Assembly (NCBI GenBank): GCA_964525635.1
Contig: CAZGJX010000090.1
Span: 1 to 17,052, forward strand
Length of the DNA: 17,052 nucleotides
Direction of reading: 5' to 3'
From: an uncultured archaeon
GTDB taxonomy: Archaea; Asgardarchaeota; Lokiarchaeia; Sigyniarchaeales; SOKP01
In this document: positions 68 to 14,778 of the stretch, in pieces
Layout: each line of letters begins with the position of its first letter
How positions within the stretch are numbered: the stretch's first letter is position 1
The notes under the pieces: generated by a model
Databases searched by the model: none
What the model was told of the DNA's origin: nothing
The model's input: the letters and a program-made list of their open reading frames with translations, nothing else
Position numbers and translations under genes: made by a program

Positions 68-268
68 TTAATCCTCAGCGGGAAAAGAATCAATTAATCC
101 TACATAATATTGAGCAACAAGTAAGGCATCAATAATATCAATTGATCCATCTGCATTAACATCTGCTAATTCTGGATAAAAAGGATAATACTCTATTCCA
201 ACATAATATTGTGCGATCTTAAGTGCATCAATACAATCAATAAATCCATCATTATTCACATCCCCTAA
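68..268 (-). other. Dockerin domain of protease A
   Basis: Two Ca-binding loop-helix repeats, DVNNDGFIDCIDALKIAQYYVG and DVNADGSIDIIDALLVAQYYVG, matching the DxNxDGxxxxxD dockerin pattern. Confidence 0.88.
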
Positions 269-3200
269 AACATATGGCTGTGGTCCAACAGAGACCAATA
301 CACTACTTCTCAAAGAATGACCATTTAATTCATAAAAGAGAATTTCGATTCTATAAATACCAGGTGGAGCTAAATCATAAACTAGATCAACAATAATTGG
401 TTGTCCTGAATACCATTTTCCAGAATCTTGTAATAATCCATCTACATATACCTCCCATCTATCTGGGATAGAGCTATTTGCAGACCATATAACGCGTAAG
501 TATTCTTCCTCATAATATATTTCACGACAATAAGAGCGTTGAATTAGTTCTTCGAGGAAAGGTTCGGGATTAATATATATATTATTATCCTCGTTCGTCT
601 CAATTACCTGTCCATATGTATCTACAAAACATATTATTTGATATTCATCGAAAGGTAAAGTTGCTGTTCCTTTACAAACTACAGATCTTTCTTCTTCAGT
701 ATTAAATCCTCCAGATATAAAACAATCTCCTAAATCATGTGTTTCATTATTATTATTTATCGCAATAAAACGAACATAAAATCCTGATGTATAAATATAT
801 CCGCTATTTGATATATTAAATGAGAATTCATAATCAAAAGTAATATTATATGCGTAATATTCCTCATTACTTAGTTTATATTCAATATCACTGGAAATAA
901 AAAAGTCAGGTGAATATTCATTAATGAATAATGGTTTACTACCAAGATTATTATTTTCATTTAACTCAAACACTTCATCAGTAAAATCTGTGTATTGTCT
1001 TATTTCATAATCACCATATGGTAGAGTAATTCTTCCTGTACATTCTACATTTTTAGACTCATGTTTCCCTAAACCATCAACATAACATTTCCCGAGTTCA
1101 TAAACATCAGTTCCATTAACAGCCGTAAAAAGAACATAAAATTCTTCTGAAGTTCCATATTCATAATTATAAACACTATTGGATATTCGATAAGTAAATG
1201 TTATTCCATCCTCATTAAAGACAAAATCACTAAGATCATCTTGGATCCACCCTATGCAACAGAGATCTGGTGCATATGTATCTCCAGGAAGGTCTAAATT
1301 TTCATAATTACCATACCTATTGTTATTTTCATTTTTTTCATCTATATGATTATAACAGTCTACATAATACATCAATTCATATTGCCCACGAGGTAAACTA
1401 ATCGTTCCACTACATTGTGCAAATTCTGAGTGAAGGGAATCTAATCCATTAACAAAACATTCTCCTAAGTCATAAATTTCTCTAGTTTCTAAGTTTCTTG
1501 CAGTATAATTGATATAAAATCCTTCTTGTGTTTCAAATCCAGAATTTCTAACATAAGCTGATAAATCGTAAGAAAATAATACATTATCTTTGCTAAAAAA
1601 TGCATCAGTTATTTCAAATAAAAAAGCATCACAATCACCTTCAATATCAGGTAAAAAGGTGTCATATGTAATTTCTAATGGATCTGGATTAACATAATTA
1701 TTATTGTCATCATCTACTTCGTTAATGTTTGCATTGGAATCCACAACACTATTAATCTCATAATCCCCCACAGGTAAGGTTATTGTTCCAGAGCATCGTA
1801 TAGTTTTCATTTCATTAGGATTCATTCCAGATATAGAACATAATCCAAGTTCATAAACTTCACCGTTAATTAGGTTTTTTGCTGTGAACCTAACATAAAT
1901 TTCTTCAGTAGTCCCCACATATCCATCATTGGTTATATCAGAAGATAGATCATAAGAAAACGTTATTATATCTTCTCCTAATATTGGATCACTGAACTCA
2001 ATATTCGTATAAGAGGACCTAAGATCAGGCATTAAATGATCAAGGTCAAGTATTAATAGTTCCGTTCTCATTTGATTATTATTCAATTCATCCCTCTCAT
2101 AAACACGATTAAATCTATCTAATCTTTGTAATATTTGATACTCACCGAAAGGTAATGTAATTGTCCCTCGACAATTTACATAATCCCCTTCTAAATGTTC
2201 CAAATAACCTATAGAAATTTCTCCTAGATCATGAATGTACCCACTATGAATATTTCTTGCAGTATAATGTATAAGAAATTCATCCGTTATATCAGCACTT
2301 CCTTTATTAAAGATATAAGAAGATATATCATAAGAAAAAGAAACATTATTTTCCCCTAAGTTAATATTATCAAGTGCAATATTAATTTGGCTATCATATG
2401 AGGTTATATCAGGTAGATATCCATATGGTATAATTCTGGCAGTTGGATCTCCTAATAGATTTAATGATAGATATTGATATTGATAATAAATAAGATCGGA
2501 ACTCACTTTTCCATGATCTAAAGCATCAATTTTAGCATCTTGTAATGCATTACCGATATCAGGCCTTCTTTCTCCTAATAAAGCATCATAGAATTCACGT
2601 CTGTAACAATCACCTATACCATCTGTATTAGGATCAACAGGATCACATGTCCAACCATATTTATAATTACCAAGATATGCAAATGCTCCATGCTCAGAAT
2701 TTACCCAATGTTCTCCAATAGAATCTTCCTCATCTAGGTCTGAAGCTCTACAAGCGGTACTGTATATAAAATAATATTTATCATTATTCAGAGCGTCAAT
2801 ATTTTCAGATCTTAATTTCATATTTTCTGTAGGAGTACCATGTCCCTTATGATTTATTATATGGACCCCCTGATCACGTTCTATGATTTCGAGGAGATGC
2901 TGTGCATCCCAAGTAAAATCTCGTTCGTATAGAGTCTCTATATCGAAATATTGAGGAAACTGAACTGTATTATAATTATGATTCGTACAAATACCAAGAT
3001 GTTCTTCATCATAAATTAGCTCATCCAGGAATTCGGCTCCATATATATCCGATGCAGTATAATCATATTCCTCATATTCTATCCCCATATATTCACCTAC
3101 ATTTAAAAGGCTATATAAATAAAAATAATCATTATCATCTCTCATTTTTTCATCATGAAAAATAGTTTTTCTTAAAAAATTTGAAAGTTCTTGTTCATTT

Positions 3201-5149
3201 TCAACTGGAGCTCTTCCAATAGTAACACGAAATCGAGTATCAATGCTAAAAAAATTATTCCAATCCTCTTCTTCACCATATATCCCATCATTATCATGAT
3301 CCCAAGAATAATCTAAAGATATATAATACTGATCAGAAGGGATAGGATCATCATATTTAGAGATCATCTCCAAAGCTTCAAAATGCCTTACAGGGACAAT
3401 ATTCTCATCTCCTCCAAGAAGAATATATATAGTACCCCAATTTTCATAAGCATCTTTTATAAATGTTTTTATCTTTTCTTGATTATCATCCCAATATTTA
3501 TATTGAGAATATATTTCTTCAACTGTTATAATTTTTGTACTAAATCCTAAATTGGATTTATGATCAACAAAATCTTGAAAGGTAAATTCTCTATTGGAAT
3601 TTTGCAAATTTTCGTTCGTAATAATTACATAGTCATACGGTCCTCTATCTCTCTTAAATAAATTATCCCGTGGCTTAATTACAGCCATAGGATCTCCAAA
3701 AATTTGAAGACTAAGAAATAATTGTCTATATTGCCAATTATCCCAATTATCTCCACGTCTAGTATCGCTTTTTGCATCTTGTAATGCTCTACCAATCTCA
3801 TCGATTCCCTCTCCAAAAATGGCGTCATAGAATTCACGAACAAACTCTTGTTCTGCTGTATCTGTTGTTGTTTTATCAAGACCCATAATATATGTTTTTC
3901 CAAGGGCAGCAAAAGCACCATTTTCAGCGGTTATAAATCGTTCTCCAACGGAATCTGTTGAGAATTCGGGATATTTACCTTGATCAACTTCATTAGCAAA
4001 AGAAAAGGCATCTCCTTGTGCACTATAAAGGAAGAATGGATAGTAATTATCCATTTCTGAAACATAATCATAATCCATTTTCATCATTAAATCATGACCA
4101 ATAAATAGATTTTCTTCTTCTATAGGTGGATCTAAAAATGTTTGATATGGCCTTCCATAATGATTTAAGATATGAATCCCAGAATCTGTATAAAATTCTA
4201 CGTCAGAAGGATCCAATAAAGTTATAAAAGGAGGGTTATATCGATCTCGTTCATATAATGTATCTACCTTAAAAGAATCGTCAATCTTCTTTGTTTGATA
4301 TCCATGATCAGTACAATATTCATTACTACTATACATATATAATTGTTCTAAATATTGCGCACCAAATACAGCTAAAGGATAAGGTAAATTTGAAGCTTCA
4401 TTATTTCCTATAAATTCACCTGTCATCAGACATTTAGATAAATAAGGATATTGATAAATACTATTTATATGGTGTTCATGTCGGAGTGTCTTTTTTACAA
4501 AATTTGAAACTTCTACTACAGAACCAACAGGTGCTCTTCCAACATAAACTTGGGCAACATCACTAGCGGAAAGAAGCGTTTGCCAGTCGGCATATTCTCC
4601 ATAGAAGCCATTATTATTATGATCCCAATCATTAAATACAGAAGCATAATATTGATCTGTATACCAACTATAATCTTGCTCATCATATTCCCAACCTATA
4701 GGAGGAGCTTCAGTTCCCAAATCTACAAAATATCTTACAGGTATTATATTTGAATCCCCACCTAAAAGTACATAAGTAGTACTCCAATAGCGGAAAGCAT
4801 GTACAATGAAATTCCGTATCCTCTCTGCATCATCTCGTCCATCAAACCTAGTTCTTATCTCTTCCACAGTTACTATTGTTGCACTAACACCATTTTCGAT
4901 TTTACTTTCAACAAGATCTTGAAAGGTATAAGCCTCGTTAGAATTCTTTAATAGTTCATTGGTTATAATAACGTACATACATAATCCTTCTATATCATCA
5001 ATAGATGCCATCATAGGTGTTTCATCTGAAGATGGAAGATTTAATTCAGATTCTTCATAAGCTGTTTTATTAAATTCATTTAAAGGAAATAGTGTTAATA
5101 GAAAAATTGCTATAAATGAAATTGTATAGATTTTTTTATTATTTAACAT
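68..5149 (-). CDS. Secreted multidomain cysteine peptidase A (1693 aa): signal/anchor, inactive C25, active C25, 5x CARDB-like, Ig-like, dockerin
   Basis: N-terminus KKIYTISFIAIFLLTLF. Two gingipain-like blocks, each YVIIT...YxLLGGD...DQYY...GRAPV...GDP (nt ~4978-3683 and ~3637-2440). Second block has GHG (H770) and TAC (C800). Five PD-x...G.Y......D..N...E..E.NN repeats (nt ~2416-560). C-terminal duplicated GDVNNDGFIDCIDAL / ADVNADGSIDIIDAL. Confidence 0.92.
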   Translation of the reverse strand: MLNNKKIYTISFIAIFLLTLFPLNEFNKTAYEESELNLPSSDETPMMASIDDIEGLCMYVIITNELLKNSNEAYTFQDLVESKIENGVSATIVTVEEIRTRFDGRDDAERIRNFIVHAFRYWSTTYVLLGGDSNIIPVRYFVDLGTEAPPIGWEYDEQDYSWYTDQYYASVFNDWDHNNNGFYGEYADWQTLLSASDVAQVYVGRAPVGSVVEVSNFVKKTLRHEHHINSIYQYPYLSKCLMTGEFIGNNEASNLPYPLAVFGAQYLEQLYMYSSNEYCTDHGYQTKKIDDSFKVDTLYERDRYNPPFITLLDPSDVEFYTDSGIHILNHYGRPYQTFLDPPIEEENLFIGHDLMMKMDYDYVSEMDNYYPFFLYSAQGDAFSFANEVDQGKYPEFSTDSVGERFITAENGAFAALGKTYIMGLDKTTTDTAEQEFVREFYDAIFGEGIDEIGRALQDAKSDTRRGDNWDNWQYRQLFLSLQIFGDPMAVIKPRDNLFKRDRGPYDYVIITNENLQNSNREFTFQDFVDHKSNLGFSTKIITVEEIYSQYKYWDDNQEKIKTFIKDAYENWGTIYILLGGDENIVPVRHFEALEMISKYDDPIPSDQYYISLDYSWDHDNDGIYGEEEDWNNFFSIDTRFRVTIGRAPVENEQELSNFLRKTIFHDEKMRDDNDYFYLYSLLNVGEYMGIEYEEYDYTASDIYGAEFLDELIYDEEHLGICTNHNYNTVQFPQYFDIETLYERDFTWDAQHLLEIIERDQGVHIINHKGHGTPTENMKLRSENIDALNNDKYYFIYSTACRASDLDEEDSIGEHWVNSEHGAFAYLGNYKYGWTCDPVDPNTDGIGDCYRREFYDALLGERRPDIGNALQDAKIDALDHGKVSSDLIYYQYQYLSLNLLGDPTARIIPYGYLPDITSYDSQINIALDNINLGENNVSFSYDISSYIFNKGSADITDEFLIHYTARNIHSGYIHDLGEISIGYLEHLEGDYVNCRGTITLPFGEYQILQRLDRFNRVYERDELNNNQMRTELLILDLDHLMPDLRSSYTNIEFSDPILGEDIITFSYDLSSDITNDGYVGTTEEIYVRFTAKNLINGEVYELGLCSISGMNPNEMKTIRCSGTITLPVGDYEINSVVDSNANINEVDDDNNNYVNPDPLEITYDTFLPDIEGDCDAFLFEITDAFFSKDNVLFSYDLSAYVRNSGFETQEGFYINYTARNLETREIYDLGECFVNGLDSLHSEFAQCSGTISLPRGQYELMYYVDCYNHIDEKNENNNRYGNYENLDLPGDTYAPDLCCIGWIQDDLSDFVFNEDGITFTYRISNSVYNYEYGTSEEFYVLFTAVNGTDVYELGKCYVDGLGKHESKNVECTGRITLPYGDYEIRQYTDFTDEVFELNENNNLGSKPLFINEYSPDFFISSDIEYKLSNEEYYAYNITFDYEFSFNISNSGYIYTSGFYVRFIAINNNNETHDLGDCFISGGFNTEEERSVVCKGTATLPFDEYQIICFVDTYGQVIETNEDNNIYINPEPFLEELIQRSYCREIYYEEEYLRVIWSANSSIPDRWEVYVDGLLQDSGKWYSGQPIIVDLVYDLAPPGIYRIEILFYELNGHSLRSSVLVSVGPQPYVLGDVNNDGFIDCIDALKIAQYYVGIEYYPFYPELADVNADGSIDIIDALLVAQYYVGLIDSFPAED

Positions 5150-5423
5150 ATTTAAAATTTACATTGTTTTAAGTTAATTCATCTAAATATAATTTATTTT
5201 AAATAGTTATCTGGTAACAAAGTGAAATACAGAAAATATAATTGTTTTTAGGTCCAATAGAAATTTAAAGATGTAGTAAATTATCAAGGAGATTATAGAT
5301 AATTTAGAAATTAAAGGCAAATATCTTTTTTTTTTTTGTATTTAATTAAAATTTTAGACCTATTGGGGTATAACATGAAATTTGGATTCCAACAATATAT
5401 TAATCTATATGAAAAAGTATCAG

Positions 5424-5438
5424 ATGTAGATATAAATA
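5424..5438 (+). promoter_or_regulatory. TATA-box-like promoter element of 7TM-longin gene A (ATGTAGA-TATAAATA)
   Basis: Conserved in the paralogous intergenic region (13646-13660). In both copies the element ends 54 nt before the ATG. Confidence 0.55.
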
Positions 5439-5491
5439 TTTATCATATTTCTATTATATAAATAATAAATACCTTTCAAGAGCATTGATTA

Positions 5492-6559
5492 ATGAATTTA
5501 AATTTTAGTTTAGAATTTTATGTATATCTAATATGTTCTGCCCTTTGTTTCATAATTTTTATAATTTTACTCTATACCGCTTTTAAGAATAAAAAGGAAG
5601 TGTTATTCTTATTATCCTTCTCAATTTTTTGCTTTATGTTAAATTTTATTGTTAATAGTTCTGCTGTATTACTAATGGATAAATTTTTATTTATTTTAGG
5701 AGCATACGCATTGTTTGGTAGCGTTTTTTTTATTTTATTTTTTATCGACTATACTTTACAAGAGCATTTCACAGCTAAAAAATTAACTTCAATTAGTGTA
5801 ATTGGCACATTATTAATTATTGCTTCATTTCAAGTAGATGCTGTGACAGCATTTTATGATTATGGCTTTCCCTCTTTAAAGAGAAATGGGTATTTTTCAA
5901 TATTATTTTTATTAATGCTTCTTATTTTTGTCATTTCAATAATGTATTGGGTAATTAAAACAATTATGAATACTCCAAATCATTTAAAAAAGAATTCGAG
6001 ATATTTATTATATGCTGCTGTAATGTATCTAATTGGAATTATTTTTCTCTTTTTACAACAAATAATTATTGTACCATTCTCAATTATTTTTAATATCATA
6101 GGAATGATAATAATAATTATTGCAGTAATAAAGGAGCCTAAAATTCTTTATATTCTTCCTTTCAAAACATATAGATTAATTGTGATTTTTAAAAAATCAG
6201 ATGTGGAAATTTTTTCTTATAAATGGGAATCTTCAGATATCAGTGATGATCTACTTGGGGGATTAATGAGTGCAATTAATAAAATGGGATTAGAGGTTAT
6301 AAATCAAGGAGAATTACAATATATTGCCTATGAAAAGGGTATTTTTCTAATAAAGAGAACTAAACATCTTGTTTTTGGATTAATTGTAAATAAAACTTCA
6401 AAATTCCTAAATAAATGCCTTTCCGAGTTCTCAATAGAATTCCAAAATAAATATGAATCTGTACTTAAAAATTGGAATGGAGATCTTGGTGTTTTTAAGG
6501 ATGTAAATACTTTATTAGAAAAACACTTTGGGTATATCCCTTCAAGAATTCCTCAGTAA
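5492..6559 (+). CDS. 7-transmembrane protein with C-terminal cytoplasmic longin-like domain (copy A, 355 aa)
   Basis: Seven hydrophobic segments in aa ~8-213. Soluble C-terminal domain (from EPKILY, nt 6134) with a beta-beta-alpha-beta-beta-beta-alpha-alpha pattern: RLIVIF / EIFSYKW / DDLLGGLMSAINKMGLEV / YIAY / FLIKR / VFGLIV / SKFLNKCLSEFSIEFQNKY. Paralogue at 13714-14778. Confidence 0.8.
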   Translation: MNLNFSLEFYVYLICSALCFIIFIILLYTAFKNKKEVLFLLSFSIFCFMLNFIVNSSAVLLMDKFLFILGAYALFGSVFFILFFIDYTLQEHFTAKKLTSISVIGTLLIIASFQVDAVTAFYDYGFPSLKRNGYFSILFLLMLLIFVISIMYWVIKTIMNTPNHLKKNSRYLLYAAVMYLIGIIFLFLQQIIIVPFSIIFNIIGMIIIIIAVIKEPKILYILPFKTYRLIVIFKKSDVEIFSYKWESSDISDDLLGGLMSAINKMGLEVINQGELQYIAYEKGIFLIKRTKHLVFGLIVNKTSKFLNKCLSEFSIEFQNKYESVLKNWNGDLGVFKDVNTLLEKHFGYIPSRIPQ

Positions 6560-6567
6560 ATATCTCT

Positions 6568-6864
6568 TTAAAAGTTATTATATGCATACTCTTTTAAAAG
6601 AATAATTTGCCTTTCTAAATCCCCTCTCTTTCGCTACTTATGGCTCGATACTCTACCATAAATTGTATATTGATTCTCTTTTCTTATAGAAGGAGATAAT
6701 TTCTTTTGAGTATGATGATGTAAGATTCTTTCAATCTCAATATGAGGAATCCTTCTGTGTCCACCAAGAGTTCTATAACATAGAATCTGTCTTTCTTTAT
6801 CCCATCCTCTCAGAGTCTTACAACATACACCTAAAAGAGCAGCTACGATTCCAATAGAATACAT
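6568..6864 (-). pseudogene. tnpA: IS607-family TnpA (MerR-type HTH + serine recombinase) N-terminal remnant
   Basis: YSIGIVAALLGVCCKTLRGWD...RTLGGHRR is a MerR-like HTH, followed by the serine-recombinase motif IYGRVSSHK. The frame continues past the TAG at 6634-6636 as RKRGDLERQIILLKEYA (family consensus roughly RVSS.KQ..DL.RQ) to a TAA at 6568-6570. The rest of the catalytic domain and tnpB are absent. Confidence 0.85.
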
Positions 6865-7153
6865 ACGCTCTGATCTCCAAAATAAATCTGAAAACCATTA
6901 TGGGATCTTCATAATAATAAGATTTATAATAGGTTTAAAATTGAAAATAAAATTGTCAACTCTGATGAACACTCCAAAATTTGAAATATGTAAATAATTT
7001 TCATTTAAATCTAAAATAATAAACAATAGATGATGTAATTTATAATGGTATATGAAATAAAACTAGCTAATTTTTTTTAAATTCACGAACATTACTATTA
7101 CTTGAATATTCTTCTTGTTATAATTCTATTTTTATTAAATTATAATTATGATT

Positions 7154-7166
7154 AAAAAAAAAAAAA
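7154..7166 (-). terminator. T13 tract downstream of protease B
   Basis: A13 on the + strand, 9 nt beyond the stop at 7176-7178. Confidence 0.5.
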
Positions 7167-7175
7167 TATTTTTGT

Positions 7176-7376
7176 TTATAATTCAGCAGGAAATTGATTA
7201 ATTAAACCTACATAATATTGAGCAATAAGTAAAGCATCTACAATATCAATAGATCCATCTGCGTTAACATCTGCCAATTCAGGATGGAATCCTATAATAT
7301 TCATACCTACATAATATTGAGCAGTTTCTAAAGCATCAATAATATCGATGAATCCATCGTTATTCACATCACCCAA
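7176..7376 (-). other. Dockerin domain of protease B
   Basis: LGDVNNDGFIDIIDALETAQYYVG...ADVNADGSIDIVDALLIAQYYVG; nearly identical to the dockerin of protease A. Confidence 0.88.
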
Positions 7377-10300
7377 AAAAAGTGGTTGCTCTCCAATAGC
7401 AACTTCTAAAGTGCTTGTCATACTATGACCATCACTCTCTTCAAATATAGCATCGTATGTATAAATACCTATAGTTGTCTCATCATAAATAATCTCAACA
7501 TGTATGGATTCTCCTGAATTCCATGTCCCGCTCTGTATTAATTCTCCATTTCTTGTTATTTGATAAGTACCTGGGAAGTCACTTGTTGGAATCCAAGTGA
7601 GTAAAATACCATCTGTAAAATAGCGTTTACCTTCAAATAAAGATGAAGGATTTTGATAGATTTTTACATTACTATTTACACCTTGAGGGATCCCTATATC
7701 TGCTGTACTCTCGTCTACTAGAATAAGAACATCAATTGCTAGCACACTTTCACCTGTTGCAATCGCTTTCCAAGTTATTGTTAAAAAACTTAGATTTGAG
7801 CTTGGACCTACTCCTGATGCATCAAATCCGCTCACTACTGCCCATCCCTCTATGTTTTGGATATCTATAAAACTAATAAAACCATCTGGTCCAGCAACTA
7901 TATCTTCTATATTAATTACAGTAGGATTAAAAGTAAAATTAAAATTATATGCAGCAACCTTCTGAATTCCTGAATCAACATATACTTGAGTATCGAATAT
8001 ATCTCCTACACGTTTATCTGCTACATCACTTATAGTAACATATCTATTTTGAAGAAGAATTACTGTTACATGGCTACCCACACCATAAGGAGTACCTATA
8101 ACAGCAGCAGTCTCATCTTGTAAGATAAGAACATCAATTGCTAGCTCACTTTCACCTACCCCAATTGCTTTCCATATTATTTTTAGGAATCTCAGATGTA
8201 TGCTTGGATCAATACCTGCTTCATTATATCCCGTCACTGTTGCCCATCCATTTGAATTTTGTATATTAACACTATTTATAAATCCATCTAGTCCCGCAGC
8301 TATACTTTCCATTATAACTACATCAGGATTAAAAGTAATATTAAAAAAATATCCCGATACTTTCTGACTTCCTGAATTAATATAAACTTGAGTATCAAAT
8401 ATATCTCCTACTATCTTAAATCTCACAGAACTCATTCTTACATTTCCAATTACTTTCACATAACTATTTATATCATAGGGACTACCTATAACATTTGCAG
8501 TTTCATCTTGTAAGGCAAGAACGTCAATTAATAACTCAGATTCACCTACTTCAATTGCTTTCCATGTTATTATTAAAAAATCTATAATTGAACTCGGATC
8601 AACACCAGCTGAATTAAAACCACTAACCGTTGCCCATCCAAATGAATTTTGGATATCAATAGCACTTATAAATCCCTCTGATCCCGTAGTTATATTTTGC
8701 AAATTAACTACTAAACGATTGAAAGTAATATTAAAACTATAAGCAGCAACTTTCTGATTTCCTGAATCAACGTAAATGTGAGTATTAAAGATTTCACCTA
8801 CAATTTTACGTTTTACAGAACTTATCCTTACACTTCCAGCTGTTCCCATGATTGGATCAGAATTTATATATATATTATTTTCCTCATCCATCTCAAGCAC
8901 GTTATTATAACAATCTACAATACACATTAATTCATAGTATCCGGATGGTAAGGTAATTGTTCCATTACAACTTATAAATTCTAATTCATTATGGTTTAAT
9001 CCATCAAGATAGTATTCTCCCAGAATATAATCTTCTTCAGTACCTTTTATAATTAATTGAATATAAAATCCTTGTGTTGTTCCATATCCGTAATTACCGA
9101 TATTAGTCCATAAATCATAAGAGAAACTTATTTCATCAGCTCCAGAGATAATGTTATTAAATTCAAAGAAAATCTCACCGTCACAATAAAAGTCAGGTAA
9201 ATAATTGGTTTGTGTAAGTTCTAATGGTTCAAAGTTTATATGAACATTATTGTTCTCATTCAATTCAACCACTCGATTATAATGATCCATAGTACACACT
9301 AATTCATATTCCCCGTATGGTATAGTGATTTTACCCCTACAGTCTATAGATCTTATTTCATATGTATCTAATCCATAAATCGAAGAAGAATCTAGATTAA
9401 AGATTTCGTCACCATTAACTAAATCAAAAGAAAAATAGATTCGATCTTCATATTTATATCCAAAATTAGAAATATAAGTTGATAGATCATATGTGAAGCT
9501 TATCATACCTTCATCTTCTATAGTAACATCACTTAGTTTATATTGAATTTCATCAATAGGACTAAAATCCGGTGCGTATTCGTCTCTCGAAAAAGTTAAG
9601 TTTTCCCTATTAATAAATATATTATTATCCTCATTCGATTCAACTACTTGATTATCATAATCTACCCAGCTAATTATTTCATAATCCCCATAAGGGATGG
9701 TCATCCACCCGTGCAAACCCTGTTTTTCTTCTATTTCATTCTGGTCTAATCCATCCACATACATATAACCTAAATCATGGAGTTTTTCACCATTTCTTAA
9801 GGCGTAATAAATCCAAAATTCTTCTGTTGTTTCCCATTCGCAATTTTTAACATAGGCGGATACTCCATAATAGAAATTTATTTCATCTTCTTCAAGAGAA
9901 ATATCACTTAAGATAATTTCAATATCATTGTAAGGAACAAAGTCCGGCATTAAGATATCTTGAGAGATTATCAATGGATAAGAATCATTATAAACATTAT
10001 TGTCATCATCTGTCTCTATTATAGTACCATCATAATCTACATTGCAAGTGATTTCATACTCACCAAATGGTAAGGTAATAGTATCCTCGCAAACTGCAGA
10101 TTTTATTTCATTAGAACTAAGCCCATCTATATAATATTCTCCTAGTACATACACATTTTCACCATTTTTGGCAGTATATTGAATATTAAAACCTTGTGTA
10201 GCCCCTACATAACCTTCATTAGATATATCAGAAGTTATTATATAAGAAAATGTTATTTCATCGTCTCCTATAACAACATTACTTTTTATAATATCAATAT

Positions 10301-13300
10301 CATTTGAAGTAATATCCGGCAATAAACTACCTGGCGCAAGTATTAAAGGATCTGATTCGAACATAAAGTTGTTCCCCTCCTCTAACTCATACACATCATT
10401 ATTACAATCAATATCATGCAATAATCTATACTCCCCATATGGTAATGTAATTCTACCTACACGACTTGAAGGTATATTATTATTAGGAGATAGTTCATTC
10501 ACATCATACTCTCCTAAAGTATGAACATCATCTCCCCATGCAATAAAACGATTAGAAAATCTTCCTGCATTTTTACCTCCCATATTCCTAATCCCAGATG
10601 ATATCTCATAAGAAAAGGTAACATTATTATCTTCATAGATAATATCCTCTTCATTTATTACTATCTTAATATTATCATATGAAACTAAATCAGCAGGTTC
10701 TGATTCCTGTATAATTACAGCGGTAGGATCTCCAAAAAGATTTAGGGAAAGAAATTTATATCTTGAATATTTAAAGTAATGTCTAGTCTCTCCTCGAAGT
10801 AAAGCTTTTTGTTTTGCTCCTTGTAATGCTCTACCGATCTCATCTATACCACCGAATTGAAGGTTATAGAATTCACGCAAATTATTCTGGTCAGGGCAAT
10901 CTGTAATAAGAGTTGCTGACGCCCCTAATCTAGTATTTCCAATGATAGCAAATGAACCATTCCTAAAAGTTAACCAATGTTCTCCAATAGAATCTCCTTT
11001 ATCAAGAGCTAATACGTTACATGCACCAGCAAAGATAAAAGGATATTTTGTATTATTAAGAGAATTAACGTCTGTAGCATCTAATTTCATAAAACGCCAA
11101 TGTTCTATACCATGTCCAACTTGATTTATTATATGCACTCCATGATCACGTTCAATGAATGAAATGAGGTCATCTTTTGTCCAAAAAAAATCTCTTTCAT
11201 AAAGGGATTCATTGTTATAATATTGCTCAAATTGTCGTGTGATATAACCATAATTAGTACAAAGACCATTGGTTTTAGGATTATAATTTAATTCATCTAG
11301 ACAATCCCCACCATATATATCAATACCATCTATTACTCCCATATGTTCGGCTAGGTTTAAAACACTGTAAAGATAAAAATCATCTCTTCTATCTCTCATT
11401 TCTTGCTCATGGAGAAGTGTTTTTCTCATGAAATTTGAAAGATCTTCTTCCGAGCTAACAGGAGTTCTTCCAACTGCAACCTGAATTTTATTAGAAATTC
11501 TGAAAAAGGCTTCCCAATCCGCCTCTTCTCCATATGTCCTATCTCCATCATGATCCCAAGAACCATCTAAAGAAGCATAATATTGATCTGAGGGAATTGG
11601 TTCATTAGCTTCTGGTTTTATATGTCCTAAAAGCGGGCTTTCAAAATACCTAATTGGTACAATATGATCATCCCCTCCGAGAAGAATATATCTAGTATCC
11701 CATAACCCATATGCATCTTTTATAAATTCTCTTATCTTTTCTGGACCATCCATCCAATGCCCATATTCAGCATTAATTTCTTCGATTGTTATTATTTTAG
11801 GACTATATCCTTGGGTTGATTTTAAATTAGTAAGATCTTGAAAATTATACTCTCCATTAGAATTTTTTAACGCTTCATTAGTGATAATAACATAATCGTG
11901 TGGTCCTTCATCTATATCAAATATACTCTCCTGCTTCGGCCTAAGTATTGCCATAGGATCTCCAAAAACTTCAAAGTAATTAAGTATGGTTTTCTGCCAA
12001 TTTAAACCCCAATCTGCATAGTATCGCTTAAAAACCTCTTCTTTTGCCACTTGTAATGCTCTGCCAATTTCATCTATGCCATCCCTAAAAATTGCGTCAT
12101 AAAATTCACGAATAAGCATCTGGGAAAAATCATCTGTGAGATCTGAAGATAAATAACTAGTAGGGGAAATGGATATATCTCCAATGGCGGCAAATGCACC
12201 ATTAGGTGAAGTTATAAAGCGTTCTCCAATAGAATCATGTGAAAAATGAACATAATTATGATGACTATCATAATTCTGATCTATTTCATCTGCAAAATTA
12301 AAAGCAGAACTCTGATAAGAAAGGAGAAAAAAAGGATTATCATTGGCAATAGATGCAATAGTATCAATATTAAATTGCATTAGATTATCATGTAAAATCC
12401 CTAAAAGTTCATCATAATCAATCCATCCTCCTACTTCTCCACCCGGAGCTACAGCCGAAAGTGGCCGCCCATGATAATTTAAAATATGTACTCCCTGTCC
12501 ACCCTCAATAATATCTACTAAAGCAGACTTCGTCCATGAATTAATATGAACATAGGGGGAATCGTAATAAGTTCCATCTCGTTCATAAAGTGTTTCAAAG
12601 TTATAATCATTAGAAATCTTCCTTGTTTGATAACCATGAGCATTACAATATGAATTACTATCATACATATAGAGCTGATCCAAACAATCAGCACCAAATA
12701 AAAGGAAAGGAGGATCAAAATCCATATCCATTCCCACAAATTCACCTGCCATTAAACCACTGTATAAATATTCAAGATTACTGCCATATCTCACTTGAGA
12801 TTCATGGAGGATTGTTTTTCTCACGAAATTGTAAACCTCTTCTGTTGAACCAACAGGTGCTCTCCCAAGATATATATCTCCCATTTTACCACTGTTAATT
12901 AATAAATTCCAATCTTCCTCCTCACCATATACTCTATCATTATCATCATCCCAAGTGATATGTATCGTTGAATAATATTGATCAGTATAATGATCATAAT
13001 CCTCTGGCTCCCATTCATCTCCAGGCATAGGCGCACCTCCAGTACAAAAATACTTTGGAGGTATAATATTAGAATCTCCTCCTAAAAGGATATATCTAGT
13101 ACCCCATTTATTGTATACATCTATGATAAAATTACGTATTTTATCCTGCAGTTCATATCCTCCATAATTATCATCTATATCTTCAACGGTCACTATTGTT
13201 CCGGTTATATCTTGATAACTTTTATAGTTAAGAAGATAATGAAAACTATATCCCTCATTATAACTTTCTAACATTCTACTCGTAATAATAACATATAAAA

Positions 13301-13472
13301 ATGATCCTTCATCATCAATAGCGGAAGTTCTTGGTCCCTCATTTAAGAATTGCAGATTTGAATTTGTTTCTTCAAAAATAATTTTATTTAATTCATTTAT
13401 AGGAATTGTCGTTATTAGAAAAATTGCTATAAATGTAACTGTATAAATTTTCTTTTTCGTCAACTTAATCAT
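7176..13472 (-). CDS. Secreted multidomain cysteine peptidase B / scaffoldin-like protein (2098 aa): signal/anchor, inactive C25, active C25, 5x CARDB-like, 3x cohesin-like, Ig-like, dockerin
   Basis: Collinear paralogue of 68-5149. C25 blocks at nt ~13298-11950 and ~11900-10720, the second with GHG (H787) and GAC (C818). Five CARDB-like repeats at nt ~10697-8850. Three ~130-aa repeats at 8837-7656 that protease A lacks. C-terminal dockerin. Confidence 0.92.
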   Translation of the reverse strand: MIKLTKKKIYTVTFIAIFLITTIPINELNKIIFEETNSNLQFLNEGPRTSAIDDEGSFLYVIITSRMLESYNEGYSFHYLLNYKSYQDITGTIVTVEDIDDNYGGYELQDKIRNFIIDVYNKWGTRYILLGGDSNIIPPKYFCTGGAPMPGDEWEPEDYDHYTDQYYSTIHITWDDDNDRVYGEEEDWNLLINSGKMGDIYLGRAPVGSTEEVYNFVRKTILHESQVRYGSNLEYLYSGLMAGEFVGMDMDFDPPFLLFGADCLDQLYMYDSNSYCNAHGYQTRKISNDYNFETLYERDGTYYDSPYVHINSWTKSALVDIIEGGQGVHILNYHGRPLSAVAPGGEVGGWIDYDELLGILHDNLMQFNIDTIASIANDNPFFLLSYQSSAFNFADEIDQNYDSHHNYVHFSHDSIGERFITSPNGAFAAIGDISISPTSYLSSDLTDDFSQMLIREFYDAIFRDGIDEIGRALQVAKEEVFKRYYADWGLNWQKTILNYFEVFGDPMAILRPKQESIFDIDEGPHDYVIITNEALKNSNGEYNFQDLTNLKSTQGYSPKIITIEEINAEYGHWMDGPEKIREFIKDAYGLWDTRYILLGGDDHIVPIRYFESPLLGHIKPEANEPIPSDQYYASLDGSWDHDGDRTYGEEADWEAFFRISNKIQVAVGRTPVSSEEDLSNFMRKTLLHEQEMRDRRDDFYLYSVLNLAEHMGVIDGIDIYGGDCLDELNYNPKTNGLCTNYGYITRQFEQYYNNESLYERDFFWTKDDLISFIERDHGVHIINQVGHGIEHWRFMKLDATDVNSLNNTKYPFIFAGACNVLALDKGDSIGEHWLTFRNGSFAIIGNTRLGASATLITDCPDQNNLREFYNLQFGGIDEIGRALQGAKQKALLRGETRHYFKYSRYKFLSLNLFGDPTAVIIQESEPADLVSYDNIKIVINEEDIIYEDNNVTFSYEISSGIRNMGGKNAGRFSNRFIAWGDDVHTLGEYDVNELSPNNNIPSSRVGRITLPYGEYRLLHDIDCNNDVYELEEGNNFMFESDPLILAPGSLLPDITSNDIDIIKSNVVIGDDEITFSYIITSDISNEGYVGATQGFNIQYTAKNGENVYVLGEYYIDGLSSNEIKSAVCEDTITLPFGEYEITCNVDYDGTIIETDDDNNVYNDSYPLIISQDILMPDFVPYNDIEIILSDISLEEDEINFYYGVSAYVKNCEWETTEEFWIYYALRNGEKLHDLGYMYVDGLDQNEIEEKQGLHGWMTIPYGDYEIISWVDYDNQVVESNEDNNIFINRENLTFSRDEYAPDFSPIDEIQYKLSDVTIEDEGMISFTYDLSTYISNFGYKYEDRIYFSFDLVNGDEIFNLDSSSIYGLDTYEIRSIDCRGKITIPYGEYELVCTMDHYNRVVELNENNNVHINFEPLELTQTNYLPDFYCDGEIFFEFNNIISGADEISFSYDLWTNIGNYGYGTTQGFYIQLIIKGTEEDYILGEYYLDGLNHNELEFISCNGTITLPSGYYELMCIVDCYNNVLEMDEENNIYINSDPIMGTAGSVRISSVKRKIVGEIFNTHIYVDSGNQKVAAYSFNITFNRLVVNLQNITTGSEGFISAIDIQNSFGWATVSGFNSAGVDPSSIIDFLIITWKAIEVGESELLIDVLALQDETANVIGSPYDINSYVKVIGNVRMSSVRFKIVGDIFDTQVYINSGSQKVSGYFFNITFNPDVVIMESIAAGLDGFINSVNIQNSNGWATVTGYNEAGIDPSIHLRFLKIIWKAIGVGESELAIDVLILQDETAAVIGTPYGVGSHVTVILLQNRYVTISDVADKRVGDIFDTQVYVDSGIQKVAAYNFNFTFNPTVINIEDIVAGPDGFISFIDIQNIEGWAVVSGFDASGVGPSSNLSFLTITWKAIATGESVLAIDVLILVDESTADIGIPQGVNSNVKIYQNPSSLFEGKRYFTDGILLTWIPTSDFPGTYQITRNGELIQSGTWNSGESIHVEIIYDETTIGIYTYDAIFEESDGHSMTSTLEVAIGEQPLFLGDVNNDGFIDIIDALETAQYYVGMNIIGFHPELADVNADGSIDIVDALLIAQYYVGLINQFPAEL
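7656..8837 (-). repeat. Three tandem cohesin-like domains (~130 aa each; aa ~1546, 1676, 1810 onward)
   Basis: Repeated VG(E/D)IF.T..Y(V/I).SG.QKV..Y.FN.TFN..V......I..G..GFI..(I/V).IQN..GWA.V.G....G..PS....FL.I.WKAI..GES.L.IDVL.L.DE. The G...V.V / F...(Y/F)(D/N)P.V / L....(F/W)KA...G.S.L pattern is cohesin-like. Also visible as DNA repeats with ~390-400 nt period. Confidence 0.75.
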
Positions 13473-13645
13473 ATATTAACATTGTTTCAGTTTAGTTTAT
13501 TAATATAAAATTTAGTCACTTAAAAACCTTCCTTGTAATAAAAAGAAACATACAAATCATAATTTTTTTTTTATTTTAAATTGAAATAAATAGAAAATGG
13601 GATTTGTAACTAATAACATATGAAATAAGATGAAATTGAATTCAA

Positions 13646-13660
13646 ATGTAGATTTAAATA
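13646..13660 (+). promoter_or_regulatory. TATA-box-like promoter element of 7TM-longin gene B (ATGTAGA-TTTAAATA)
   Basis: 14/15 identical to 5424-5438, with the same 54-nt spacing to the ATG at 13714. Confidence 0.55.
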
Positions 13661-13713
13661 AGAGAGATGAATCTTTCTTATCAATAATAAATATATACCA
13701 AGAGCAATAATCC

Positions 13714-14778
13714 ATGACTTTAAATTTCAGTATGGTGTTTTATATATATCTAATATGTTCCGCTATTGGATTGATAACGTCTATAATCTTTTCCTAGATG
13801 GTATTTAAGAAGAGGAAAGCGGTATTATTATATCTCTCCTTTTCAATATTATGCTATTCTTTATATTATAATGCAAGTAGCCTTGCTTTCTTGTTTATGG
13901 ATAAACCTATATATATTTTAGGAGGATATATGCTATGTGCTAGTGTTCTATTTCTGATTTTTTTCATAGATTATACTTTACATGAAACAATTACAGTTAT
14001 AAAACTATCAGCAATTAGTGCAATTTTATCATTATTAATTATATCAATTCTTCAAGAAAATGCAATTAAAGAATTTTATGGTTATGGATATCCTTCTTTA
14101 AAGAGTGCAGGTTATTTTTCTATATTCGTATTTTTATTGACTTTTATTTTTGTTGTTTCAATTCTGTATTGGGTAATTAAAACCCTGATAAATACCCCAA
14201 AACAATTAAAAAAAAAATCTGAAAAATTATTATATTCAGCTCTTATTTATATAATTGCATCCTTCTTCTTTCTTATTCAACAAATGATTTGTGTTCCAAT
14301 ATCAGGATTTTTCACAATTGCTGGAATGATAATTATGATTGTTGCTATTATGAATGAACCAAAAATCCTTTATATCTTACCATTTAAAACTGATAGATTA
14401 ATTGTAATTTATAAAGAATCAGATGTGGAAATTTTTTCTCATCGATGGGGACCTTCAAATATGATTGATGATCTTCTCGCTGGATTTATGAGTGCAATTA
14501 ATAAAGTAGGATTAGAAGTGATAAATCAAGGAGAATTAAAATATATTGCTTATGAAAATGGTGTCGTATTAATAAAGAGAACAGAAAATCTTATATTTGG
14601 ATTGATTGTAAATAAAACTTCAAAATTTCTAAATAAATGCCTTCACGAGTTCTCAATAGAATTTCAAAATAAATATCAACATATACTCAATAATTGGAAT
14701 GGAGATCTTGGTGTTTTTAAGGATGCAAATGTTTTATTAGAAAAACACTTTGGATATATCCCTTCAAGGATTCTATAG
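13714..14778 (+). CDS. 7TM + longin-like protein copy B; true start 13714, interrupted by an in-frame TAG at codon 28 (13795-13797); may be a pseudogene
   Basis: 13714 reads MTLNFSMVFYIYLICSAIGLITSIIFS*MVFKKRK and aligns without gaps to copy A MNLNFSLEFYVYLICSALCFIIFIILLYTAFKNKK. The remaining 326 codons are open and homologous to copy A. Confidence 0.8.

Follow-up and report, generated by a model that had tools for sequence, protein, structure and literature searches.

Dockerin-bearing C25 proteases and a predicted cellulosome-like surface complex in a genus of Lokiarchaeia

The question raised by this locus is to which machinery two giant, dockerin-bearing proteases of an archaeon belong. 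The window, that is the whole stretch of 17,052 nucleotides analyzed here (contig CAZGJX010000090.1 of assembly GCA_964525635.1), contains two long open reading frames (ORFs) on the minus strand: positions 68-5149 encode protease A (1693 amino acids, aa) and positions 7176-13472 encode protease B (2098 aa). An earlier note, made from the letters of the window, read them as a cellulosome-like protease complex of a probable Asgard archaeon in which B is a catalytic scaffoldin. Analysis of the source genome of the window (G000), of three sister genomes of the same genus (G001, G002 and G003) and of a Lokiarchaeon of another family (G035) suggests that B probably acts as a catalytic adaptor within a cellulosome-like complex on the cell surface, whose modules are bacterial, whose anchors are of Asgard type and whose C25 protease is native. 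The G000 census gave 25 dockerins and 17 cohesin domains, 12 of them on six membrane-anchored scaffoldins. Each of the four genomes of the genus has the system, as does G035.

Proteases A and B are 44% identical across the first 1530 residues and show a common order: a basic-hydrophobic N-terminus, two C25 domains, five CARDB-like repeats, an Ig-like spacer and a C-terminal dockerin. Three additional repeats of 130 aa are located ahead of the Ig-like spacer in B only. Pfam detected Peptidase_C25 twice, CARDB four to five times and Dockerin_1 in both proteins, and the profile search agrees with the first description of two large C25 peptidases with dockerins and tandem cohesins only in B. The features of the two genes are:

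68-5149, minus strand: protease A, 1693 aa, with signal-like N-terminus, dead C25, live C25, five CARDB-like repeats, Ig-like spacer and dockerin (ORF and Pfam)
3665-4978, minus strand: N-terminal C25 copy of A, pseudo-protease, His replaced by Arg333 and Cys by Gly379 (alignment)
2423-3631, minus strand: C-terminal C25 domain of A, His770/Cys800 aligned to the gingipain R dyad (alignment)
551-2398, minus strand: five CARDB-like beta repeats of A, a stalk (Pfam)
275-526, minus strand: Ig/PKD-like spacer of A, of the same kind as between scaffoldin cohesins
80-268, minus strand: dockerin of A, two Ca-binding loop-helix repeats (Pfam)
7176-13472, minus strand: protease B, 2098 aa, with signal-like N-terminus, dead C25, live C25, five CARDB-like repeats, three cohesins, Ig-like spacer and dockerin
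13395-13472, minus strand: basic-then-hydrophobic N-terminus of B, probable secretion signal (Kyte-Doolittle peak about 1.5)
11931-13304, minus strand: N-terminal C25 copy of B, pseudo-protease, His replaced by Arg336 and Cys by Ser388 (alignment)
10707-11894, minus strand: C-terminal C25 domain of B, His787/Cys818 (alignment)
8838-10679, minus strand: five CARDB-like repeats of B (Pfam)
8448-8834, minus strand: cohesin 1 of B
8058-8444, minus strand: cohesin 2 of B
7656-8045, minus strand: cohesin 3 of B, modelled, type-I-like cohesin fold (structure model)
7383-7622, minus strand: Ig/PKD-like spacer of B
7188-7376, minus strand: dockerin of B (Pfam)

The repeats of B are 58-62% identical to one another, and Pfam assigned the three of them to Cohesin with a marginal score (E 9.6e-9, 36 bits over three stretches against a cut-off of 24.1). 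The sequence of cohesin 3 gave no match in the PDB and was placed by fold comparison only. Its AlphaFold model, for which 16 genome-internal homologues were the input, shows a nine-strand sandwich with a pLDDT of 96 and matches the nine-stranded jelly-roll of solved cohesins, which have about 130-140 aa (VIA cohesin Z of 15-16). Foldseek gave chains with cohesins as the first 44 matches of the model, with R. flavefaciens ScaC and clostridial type I cohesins at the top, and VIA alignment against all the PDB gave a Z of 16.2 for cohesins (rmsd of 1.8 over 126 residues) and of 12.2 for the best non-cohesin. The model and both comparisons rule out a generic Ig or carbohydrate-binding module (CBM) fold, and the three repeats, already read as cohesin-like in the earlier note, are type-I-like cohesins as judged by the modelled fold. 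Complex prediction of cohesin 3 with the dockerin of A and two Ca ions scored 0.14 (mark of 0.32); it was run without controls and is counted neither way. The cohesin alignment contained no usable conserved word.

The dockerins of A and B score 38-40 bits against the PF00404 cut-off of 22.9, keep both repeats of a 12-residue Ca loop and a helix, and match cellulosomal dockerins in the PDB (E of 6e-11). They share 52 of 68 residues (76%), which is less than the near identity first ascribed to them. Both Ca loops are intact in nearly all dockerin copies. Dockerins are also the most constrained part of the proteases, with dN/dS of 0.18-0.20 in relation to 0.31-0.58 for cohesins, 0.43 for the live C25 domain and 0.62 for CARDB, all of them rough ratios obtained by simple counting on AT-rich DNA. 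The residues at positions 10/11, 17/18 and 22, which we take to be the usual recognition positions of type I dockerins, are common to dockerins borne by proteases and by glycoside hydrolases (GHs), therefore one broad specificity is predicted.

Eight of the 25 dockerins of G000 are borne by intact GHs (three GH9 with CBM3, four GH5 and one GH16), one by a frameshift-split GH5, and four by proteases (two C25 and two S8). The remaining carriers are a chagasin-type I42 inhibitor, a family-5 solute-binding protein and ten others, among them a protein of at least 6377 aa and one pseudogene, and many carriers show no recognisable catalytic domain. Catalytic motifs are intact in all three dockerin-borne GH9s, both glutamates are present in four GH5s, and the GH9-CBM3c of contig C110 aligns with the cellulosomal Cel9G across the catalytic and CBM3c parts (E 5e-182). 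Thus, the statement that no GH or CBM is present holds for the window; the genome encodes both, borne with dockerins. Furthermore, with nine GHs and four proteases among the dockerin carriers, and dedicated anchored scaffoldins elsewhere in the genome, the reading of the system as a protease complex fitted to a peptide-fermenting lifestyle, as had been suggested, is not supported.

The six scaffoldins of G000 are built as a signal followed by alternating cohesin and Ig domains and a tail, and their C-termini contain a short motif, a transmembrane stretch and a basic tail. When the tails were scored alone, four of the six passed the cut-off of NF033507 (Loki-CTERM); none of the whole proteins did. 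The genome encodes five multi-cohesin proteins: four with 3, 3, 2 and 2 cohesins, and protease B with 3. A and B do not show a C-terminal anchor, and tethering through the N-terminal hydrophobic segment, as proposed before, is unnecessary: the scaffoldins anchored at the C-terminus have the same type of N-terminus, therefore that of B is most likely a secretion signal. Docking onto the membrane-anchored scaffoldins is a simpler anchor for B. B, with one dockerin and three cohesins, has the layout of a catalytic polyvalent scaffoldin, and this type of layout is conserved in the genus. G000 has at least one dockerin-borne GH and one multi-cohesin protein, which are the minimal cellulosome criteria of PMC11557425.

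Other dockerin carriers were also observed. The chagasin-family (I42) cysteine-protease inhibitor (L021:2570-4036) has an orthologue in bin106 and resembles the protective inhibitors of clostridial cellulosomes. The protein of at least 6377 aa (L010:646-19776, G000:C21) shows an N-terminal dockerin with LamG and CBM96 domains, and G001 contains an open frame of 11,376 codons with a dockerin.

These data suggest the following scheme. The six scaffoldins with Loki-CTERM-type tails supply 12 cohesins, and 25 loci, including GH9-CBM3, GH5, GH16, proteases, the inhibitor and the solute-binding protein, encode one kind of dockerin; Ca-dependent cohesin-dockerin binding would load the dockerin proteins onto the membrane-anchored scaffoldins. 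The CBM3 carried by the enzymes, and not by a scaffoldin, would hold the cell to plant debris, and GH94 phosphorylases, found in all five genomes with the system, would consume the products inside the cell. The dockerin of B would plug into an anchor and its three cohesins would turn one site into three, the new sockets probably favouring protease-type dockerins such as that of A. This proteolytic branch may supply nitrogen from plant or biofilm protein, process and recycle the complex, or both. The cohesin, dockerin and GH parts would be of bacterial origin, and the Asgard archaea themselves would have contributed the Ig spacers, the anchor and C25. As there is no CBM3-bearing primary scaffoldin, the complex would be a variant and not a canonical cellulosome.

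Several observations weigh against this scheme. CBM3 was found on enzymes and on no cohesin protein of G000, whose assembly is fragmented, and GH48 was not found in this genome. Its 8-9 dockerin-borne GHs correspond to the 'low' class of PMC11557425; the canonical clostridial set has 22-70 dockerin-fused lignocellulases. GH94 is also present in relatives without the system, and B does not show the upstream motif common to several scaffoldin and GH genes. Furthermore, one frameshift lies inside the cohesin of a GH5-cohesin-dockerin gene on C47 (L005:5900-5925), an Ig-Ig-dockerin gene on C60 is frameshifted (L023), and the start codon of one scaffoldin has apparently changed to CTG (L001:10808), which are signs of turnover or decay in G000. 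These three damaged genes, as well as the many dockerin carriers without a recognisable catalytic domain, would be expected if the modules were unpaired, with cohesins as rigid stalk or adhesion domains and dockerins as Ca-binding tags in a decaying system. We consider such a relic very improbable: constraint on the proteases is strongest in the dockerins (dN/dS of about 0.2), both their Ca loops are kept in nearly all copies, and expansion of cohesins is always accompanied by expansion of dockerins, as seen in two lineages.

Other points against the scheme concern the partners of B, as the choice between cohesins and dockerins was deduced from sequence. The cohesins of B are only 36-46% identical to those of the anchored scaffoldins, and FastTree groups B-type cohesins from three genomes and a further assembly in a clade of their own (support of 1.0). 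The dockerins of C25 and S8 proteases cluster weakly apart from the others (support of 0.85), and in those of C25 proteases position 15 of the first repeat is occupied by Lys, Glu, Gln or Thr, polar residues that could disable one of the two binding faces of the dockerin. With a separate clade of B cohesins and weakly separate protease dockerins, the proteases could form a sub-network of their own. In its full form, this alternative states that the cohesins of B bind only protease-type dockerins (A, B and S8) in a self-contained branched proteolytic network, separate from the cellulases. That A and one S8-dockerin gene carry the same variant of the upstream motif, and that five of the six tandem-C25 homologues bear cohesins, also agree with it. 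Nevertheless, we regard it as rather unlikely. The usual recognition positions are identical in protease and GH dockerins, the twelve anchored cohesins are a ready tether for A and B, which have no C-terminal anchor of their own, and a weak tree of 60 residues may reflect gene history and not specificity; deep nodes are weak in both the cohesin and the dockerin trees. Within the adaptor role preferred for B, the same groups, one clade of protease-borne cohesins and a weak clade of protease-borne dockerins, make recruitment of A by B plausible, and B may also self-branch through its own dockerin.

Sixty-five further genomes from this family gave no sign of the system. The three other genomes of the genus gave 19, 11 and 15 dockerin matches and 14, 14 and 5 cohesin matches, with up to four cohesins per protein in G002, and G035 gave 23 and 15, respectively. 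Among 301 genomes of the phylum, the same cohesin type was found in six, and CBM3 in exactly the five with the system. GH48 was found in three of these five and nowhere else among the 301; it bears a dockerin in G002, G003 and G035, and it was not found in G001. The dockerin-borne enzymes of the sister genomes also include GH10, and the GH48 catalytic motif is intact. Outside the five genomes, dockerins were present in six of the 301, in one or two copies. Genome G201 was not counted as a system genome because its single cohesin belongs to an isolated protein whose C-terminal tail is different. As at most two independent lineages are involved, no statistic is claimed for this distribution.

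Other architectures were seen in these genomes. In G002, L054:6725-11290 encodes a GH5 followed by four Ig-cohesin units and a Loki-CTERM tail, i.e. a membrane-anchored catalytic scaffoldin. Full-length GH48 exoglucanases with Ig-cohesin-dockerin tails are found in G002 and G003 (L055:9982-12903 and L056:8450-11365). In G035 (L063 and L157-L160), most of the enzymes examined carry a C-terminal cohesin-dockerin pair with a short linker (about 5 residues), and the anchors seen have one cohesin each; head-to-tail enzyme chains without a multi-cohesin scaffoldin would be possible from this arrangement. Metagenome contigs with no assigned taxon also contain GH48, GH5 and GH10-dockerin clusters of the same style. 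Lone cohesin-dockerin proteins without nearby cellulases were found in three further Asgard metagenome-assembled genomes (MAGs), one of them labelled Hodarchaeota (L161, L164 and L165), and their cohesins group with the Lokiarchaeial ones.

The Asgard host (Lokiarchaeia/Promethearchaeota) proposed in the earlier note is supported by the labels of homologues (Lokiarchaeota or Promethearchaeota), by an actin-family gene on the scaffoldin contig C10 and by archaeal clusters of neighbour genes: the neighbour gene in the window belongs to clusters that are 100% archaeal, mostly Promethearchaeota. The G+C content at third codon positions of A (0.157) and B (0.183) is that of the genome (0.172 ± 0.04), and the system genes equal the host; spirochaete loci have 37-47% GC. 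The sequence of the window was recovered in Logan contigs from four public runs, with a single substitution and without indels; one of them covers 6474-8901, with all three cohesins and the dockerin of B, at zero differences, and read depth along the window is broadly even in the four runs. The source DNA was found in salt-marsh metagenomes, possibly of one campaign, which may include the source sample. That the genes come from a contaminating bacterium through binning or assembly is scarcely tenable and already largely refuted. The closest modules are indeed bacterial, the assembly has 245 contigs, and the scaffoldin contig C110 carries system genes only; however, base composition, read depth and the neighbours on C10 and in the window agree with the host, the same system appears in five separately assembled genomes, and Lokiarchaeial Loki-CTERM tails are fused to the cohesins.

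Outside Asgard archaea, the best dockerins in GTDB belong to Spirochaetales MAGs, with 57-73% identity and the same consensus helix, and the cohesins are 31-49% identical to spirochaete cohesins. For GH48, the nearest enzymes are those of Firmicutes (71% to the Mahella australiensis cluster). Other Asgard classes contain relatives of the Ig spacer, which was not detected in the scaffoldins of the spirochaetes; a GTDB scan with a scaffoldin query gave no match. The cohesin, dockerin and GH parts are most simply read as bacterial in origin and later domesticated; as deep tree nodes are weak, no donor or direction is claimed. The Spirochaetales MAGs Zod_Metabat.749, Zod_Metabat.855 and ZodW_Metabat.242 contain CBM3-dockerin-multi-cohesin scaffoldins with 6-10 cohesins (L148:3528-14207; proteins P0082, P0085 and P0090), and their dockerin proteins, GH9 and GH5 among them, number in the dozens. 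This looks like a full cellulosome, of which no description was found in the literature.

Such neighbours allow a further explanation, compatible with the adaptor role of B, in which archaeal cohesins capture bacterial enzymes, and the dockerin proteases home to bacterial scaffoldins and digest them. The near-identical binding helices of the Spirochaetales dockerins, the likeness of the cohesins and the large CBM3 scaffoldins of these bacteria are in line with it. G001 and the Spirochaetales MAGs also have a common 'Zod' isolate prefix, suggesting one site, G000 keeps its sockets though it has no GH48, and scavenging for other organisms has been raised before (PMC11557425, PMC12484212). Descent after gene transfer explains the sequence likeness equally and the genus encodes many enzymes of its own, so that cross-species docking at this locus seems distinctly unlikely. 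The more general form, a genus-wide archaeal cellulosome compatible with that of neighbouring spirochaetes, which would capture their enzymes and use the C25 proteases to digest foreign scaffoldins for nitrogen, is likewise unlikely.

C25 matches of A and B in Pfam reach E values of 1e-84 to 1e-88. In each protein, the His/Cys dyad is kept only in the second of the two C25 domains, where His770/Cys800 of A and His787/Cys818 of B align with the dyad of gingipain R; the match to gingipain R is very distant (PDB E 0.001) and the alignment is weak outside the dyad. The first copy has lost both dyad residues in all six tandem homologues. The two tandem copies form a genus-level clade (100/100), apart from the single-domain Asgard C25s, and the C25-C25-CARDB-cohesin(-dockerin) layout is kept in G001 (three paralogues), G002 (one) and other assemblies. 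As C25 was found in 39 of 41 related genomes, this family is considered native to these archaea. The Pfam C25 propeptide is present in most single-domain relatives and none was recorded for the tandem forms, therefore the dead copy may have assumed a pro-domain role, or one in substrate binding. In relation to gingipains and PorU (C25, clan CD), A and B share the C25 domain and the dyad of the second copy, and differ in their tandem dead-plus-live domains, the absence of a recorded propeptide and no sign of a pathogenic role.

Nearly all members of the order encode a C25 protein of about 720 aa (G000:C142:5875-8019 and relatives). No PF09721 archaeosortase was found in the five system genomes, though these encode many Loki-CTERM-type proteins. 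The C25 family includes the sortase PorU, and the protein of about 720 aa is, speculatively, a candidate for the missing sorting enzyme.

Cellulosomes have been described in anaerobic bacteria and, with unrelated modules, in anaerobic fungi (PMC12484212). The Asgard system resembles those of Acetivibrio thermocellus, Ruminiclostridium cellulolyticum and Acetivibrio cellulolyticus in the type-I-like cohesin fold, the duplicated dockerin and the dockerin-borne GH9-CBM3c and GH5, with GH48 and GH10 in the sister genomes. It also shares with them accessory dockerin-bearing S8 or cysteine proteases and protease inhibitors (PMC12484212), for which processing and nitrogen recycling have been proposed in bacteria (PMC12484212, PMC5301203), and, as classes, polyvalent adaptors and non-SLH anchoring scaffoldins (PMC11557425). 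In contrast, it has no CBM3 primary scaffoldin, SLH, LPXTG or X-dockerin, and it shows one cohesin-dockerin type and scaffoldins of up to 3-4 cohesins, which alternate with Asgard-type Ig spacers and end in a Loki-CTERM-type tail. The host is archaeal, dockerin-borne GHs are few, and the polyvalent adaptor is itself a protease.

Candidatus Stygibacter (Cloacimonadota), with a system predicted from MAGs, is the direct precedent for a C25-dockerin protein and has dockerin-bearing gingipain-like C25 and S8 proteases, dockerin-borne GHs and a multi-cohesin scaffoldin; it differs in being bacterial, in having GH18/GH57 and no cellulases, and in a scaffoldin described as non-catalytic and CBM-bearing, with no protease cohesins reported (PMC8542988). 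Paenibacillus guangzhouensis has enzymes with both cohesin and dockerin and separate surface anchors, a layout shared by most G035 enzymes examined and by the GH48s of G002 and G003; however, its anchors are SLH, its GHs are mostly non-cellulolytic and no multi-cohesin protease is present (PMC11557425). Archaeal cohesins and dockerins likewise occur in Archaeoglobus fulgidus, whose PDB entry 2xdh is among the best fold matches, and in anaerobic methanotrophic archaea (ANME), where a dockerin is found with up to five cohesins and solute-binding proteins are dockerin-tagged, as in G000 (PMC9012536). The ANME scaffoldin-like proteins have solute-binding and S-layer partners, not cellulases, and no cellulases are reported on dockerins of either group in the section of PMC9012536 examined, whereas GH9, GH5, GH48 and CBM3 dominate here and the Asgard modules are closest in sequence to Spirochaetales. 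The archaeal cohesin-dockerin systems that we found described are non-cellulolytic (PMC9012536). A literature search without most subscription journals gave no description of an Asgard or other archaeal cellulosome, and no precedent was found in the literature examined for a multi-cohesin scaffoldin that is itself a protease.

If assembled as predicted, the complex would mean that an archaeon has a cellulosome-like machine, with GH48 and CBM3 encoded by Asgard genomes. Cultured Lokiarchaeia are pictured as slow peptide fermenters; if the prediction is true, in salt marshes and other anoxic sediments some Lokiarchaeia would act as primary degraders of plant polymers and not solely as peptide fermenters, and the system suggests cellulose as an enrichment substrate for this group, whose cultivation is very difficult. 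Bacterial cohesins placed between Asgard Ig spacers and followed by an Asgard sorting tail would represent the domestication of a surface machine after transfer, with a native protease family recruited as both cargo and adaptor, in archaea that are relatives of the ancestor of eukaryotes.

A and B, described as neighbours in the earlier note, are separated by a membrane-protein gene. This gene and its paralog are:

5492-6559, plus strand: multi-pass membrane protein, 355 aa, divergent from A, between A and B
13798-14778, plus strand: paralogous membrane protein divergent from B, member of a tandemly duplicated two-gene unit

The first protein belongs to a Promethearchaeota-specific family and is 65% identical to the copy beside B; the two genes share 76% DNA identity. 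Positions 4241-6551 and 12573-14773 of the window correspond to a tandem duplication of the protease and divergent membrane-protein unit. The head-to-head pairing was not seen at five orthologous loci, and a conserved functional pairing of protease and membrane protein was therefore dropped in favour of local tandem duplication. ARAGORN detected no tRNA in the window.

A TTCA-N7-CCA element before a TATA-like box precedes several scaffoldin and GH genes, and it is found about 78 bases ahead of the start of A (window position 5149) as well as before about 40 other genes of G000. In the motif ranking, A was 38th of 2717 and B 198th. Held-out cohesin and dockerin genes were not enriched overall for the motif (p = 0.24) and its top matches are mostly secreted-looking proteins in general, hence it was dropped as a regulon marker of the system; it is possibly an activator site for the secretome. 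There was no RNA dataset among the metagenome matches listed for the scaffoldin cluster. Finally, beta-helix (NosD-like) repeat proteins of about 1000 aa are encoded beside scaffoldin genes of G000 (L001:7457-10492 and L002:1039-4059), and similar-looking genes flank the scaffoldins of G001 and G002.

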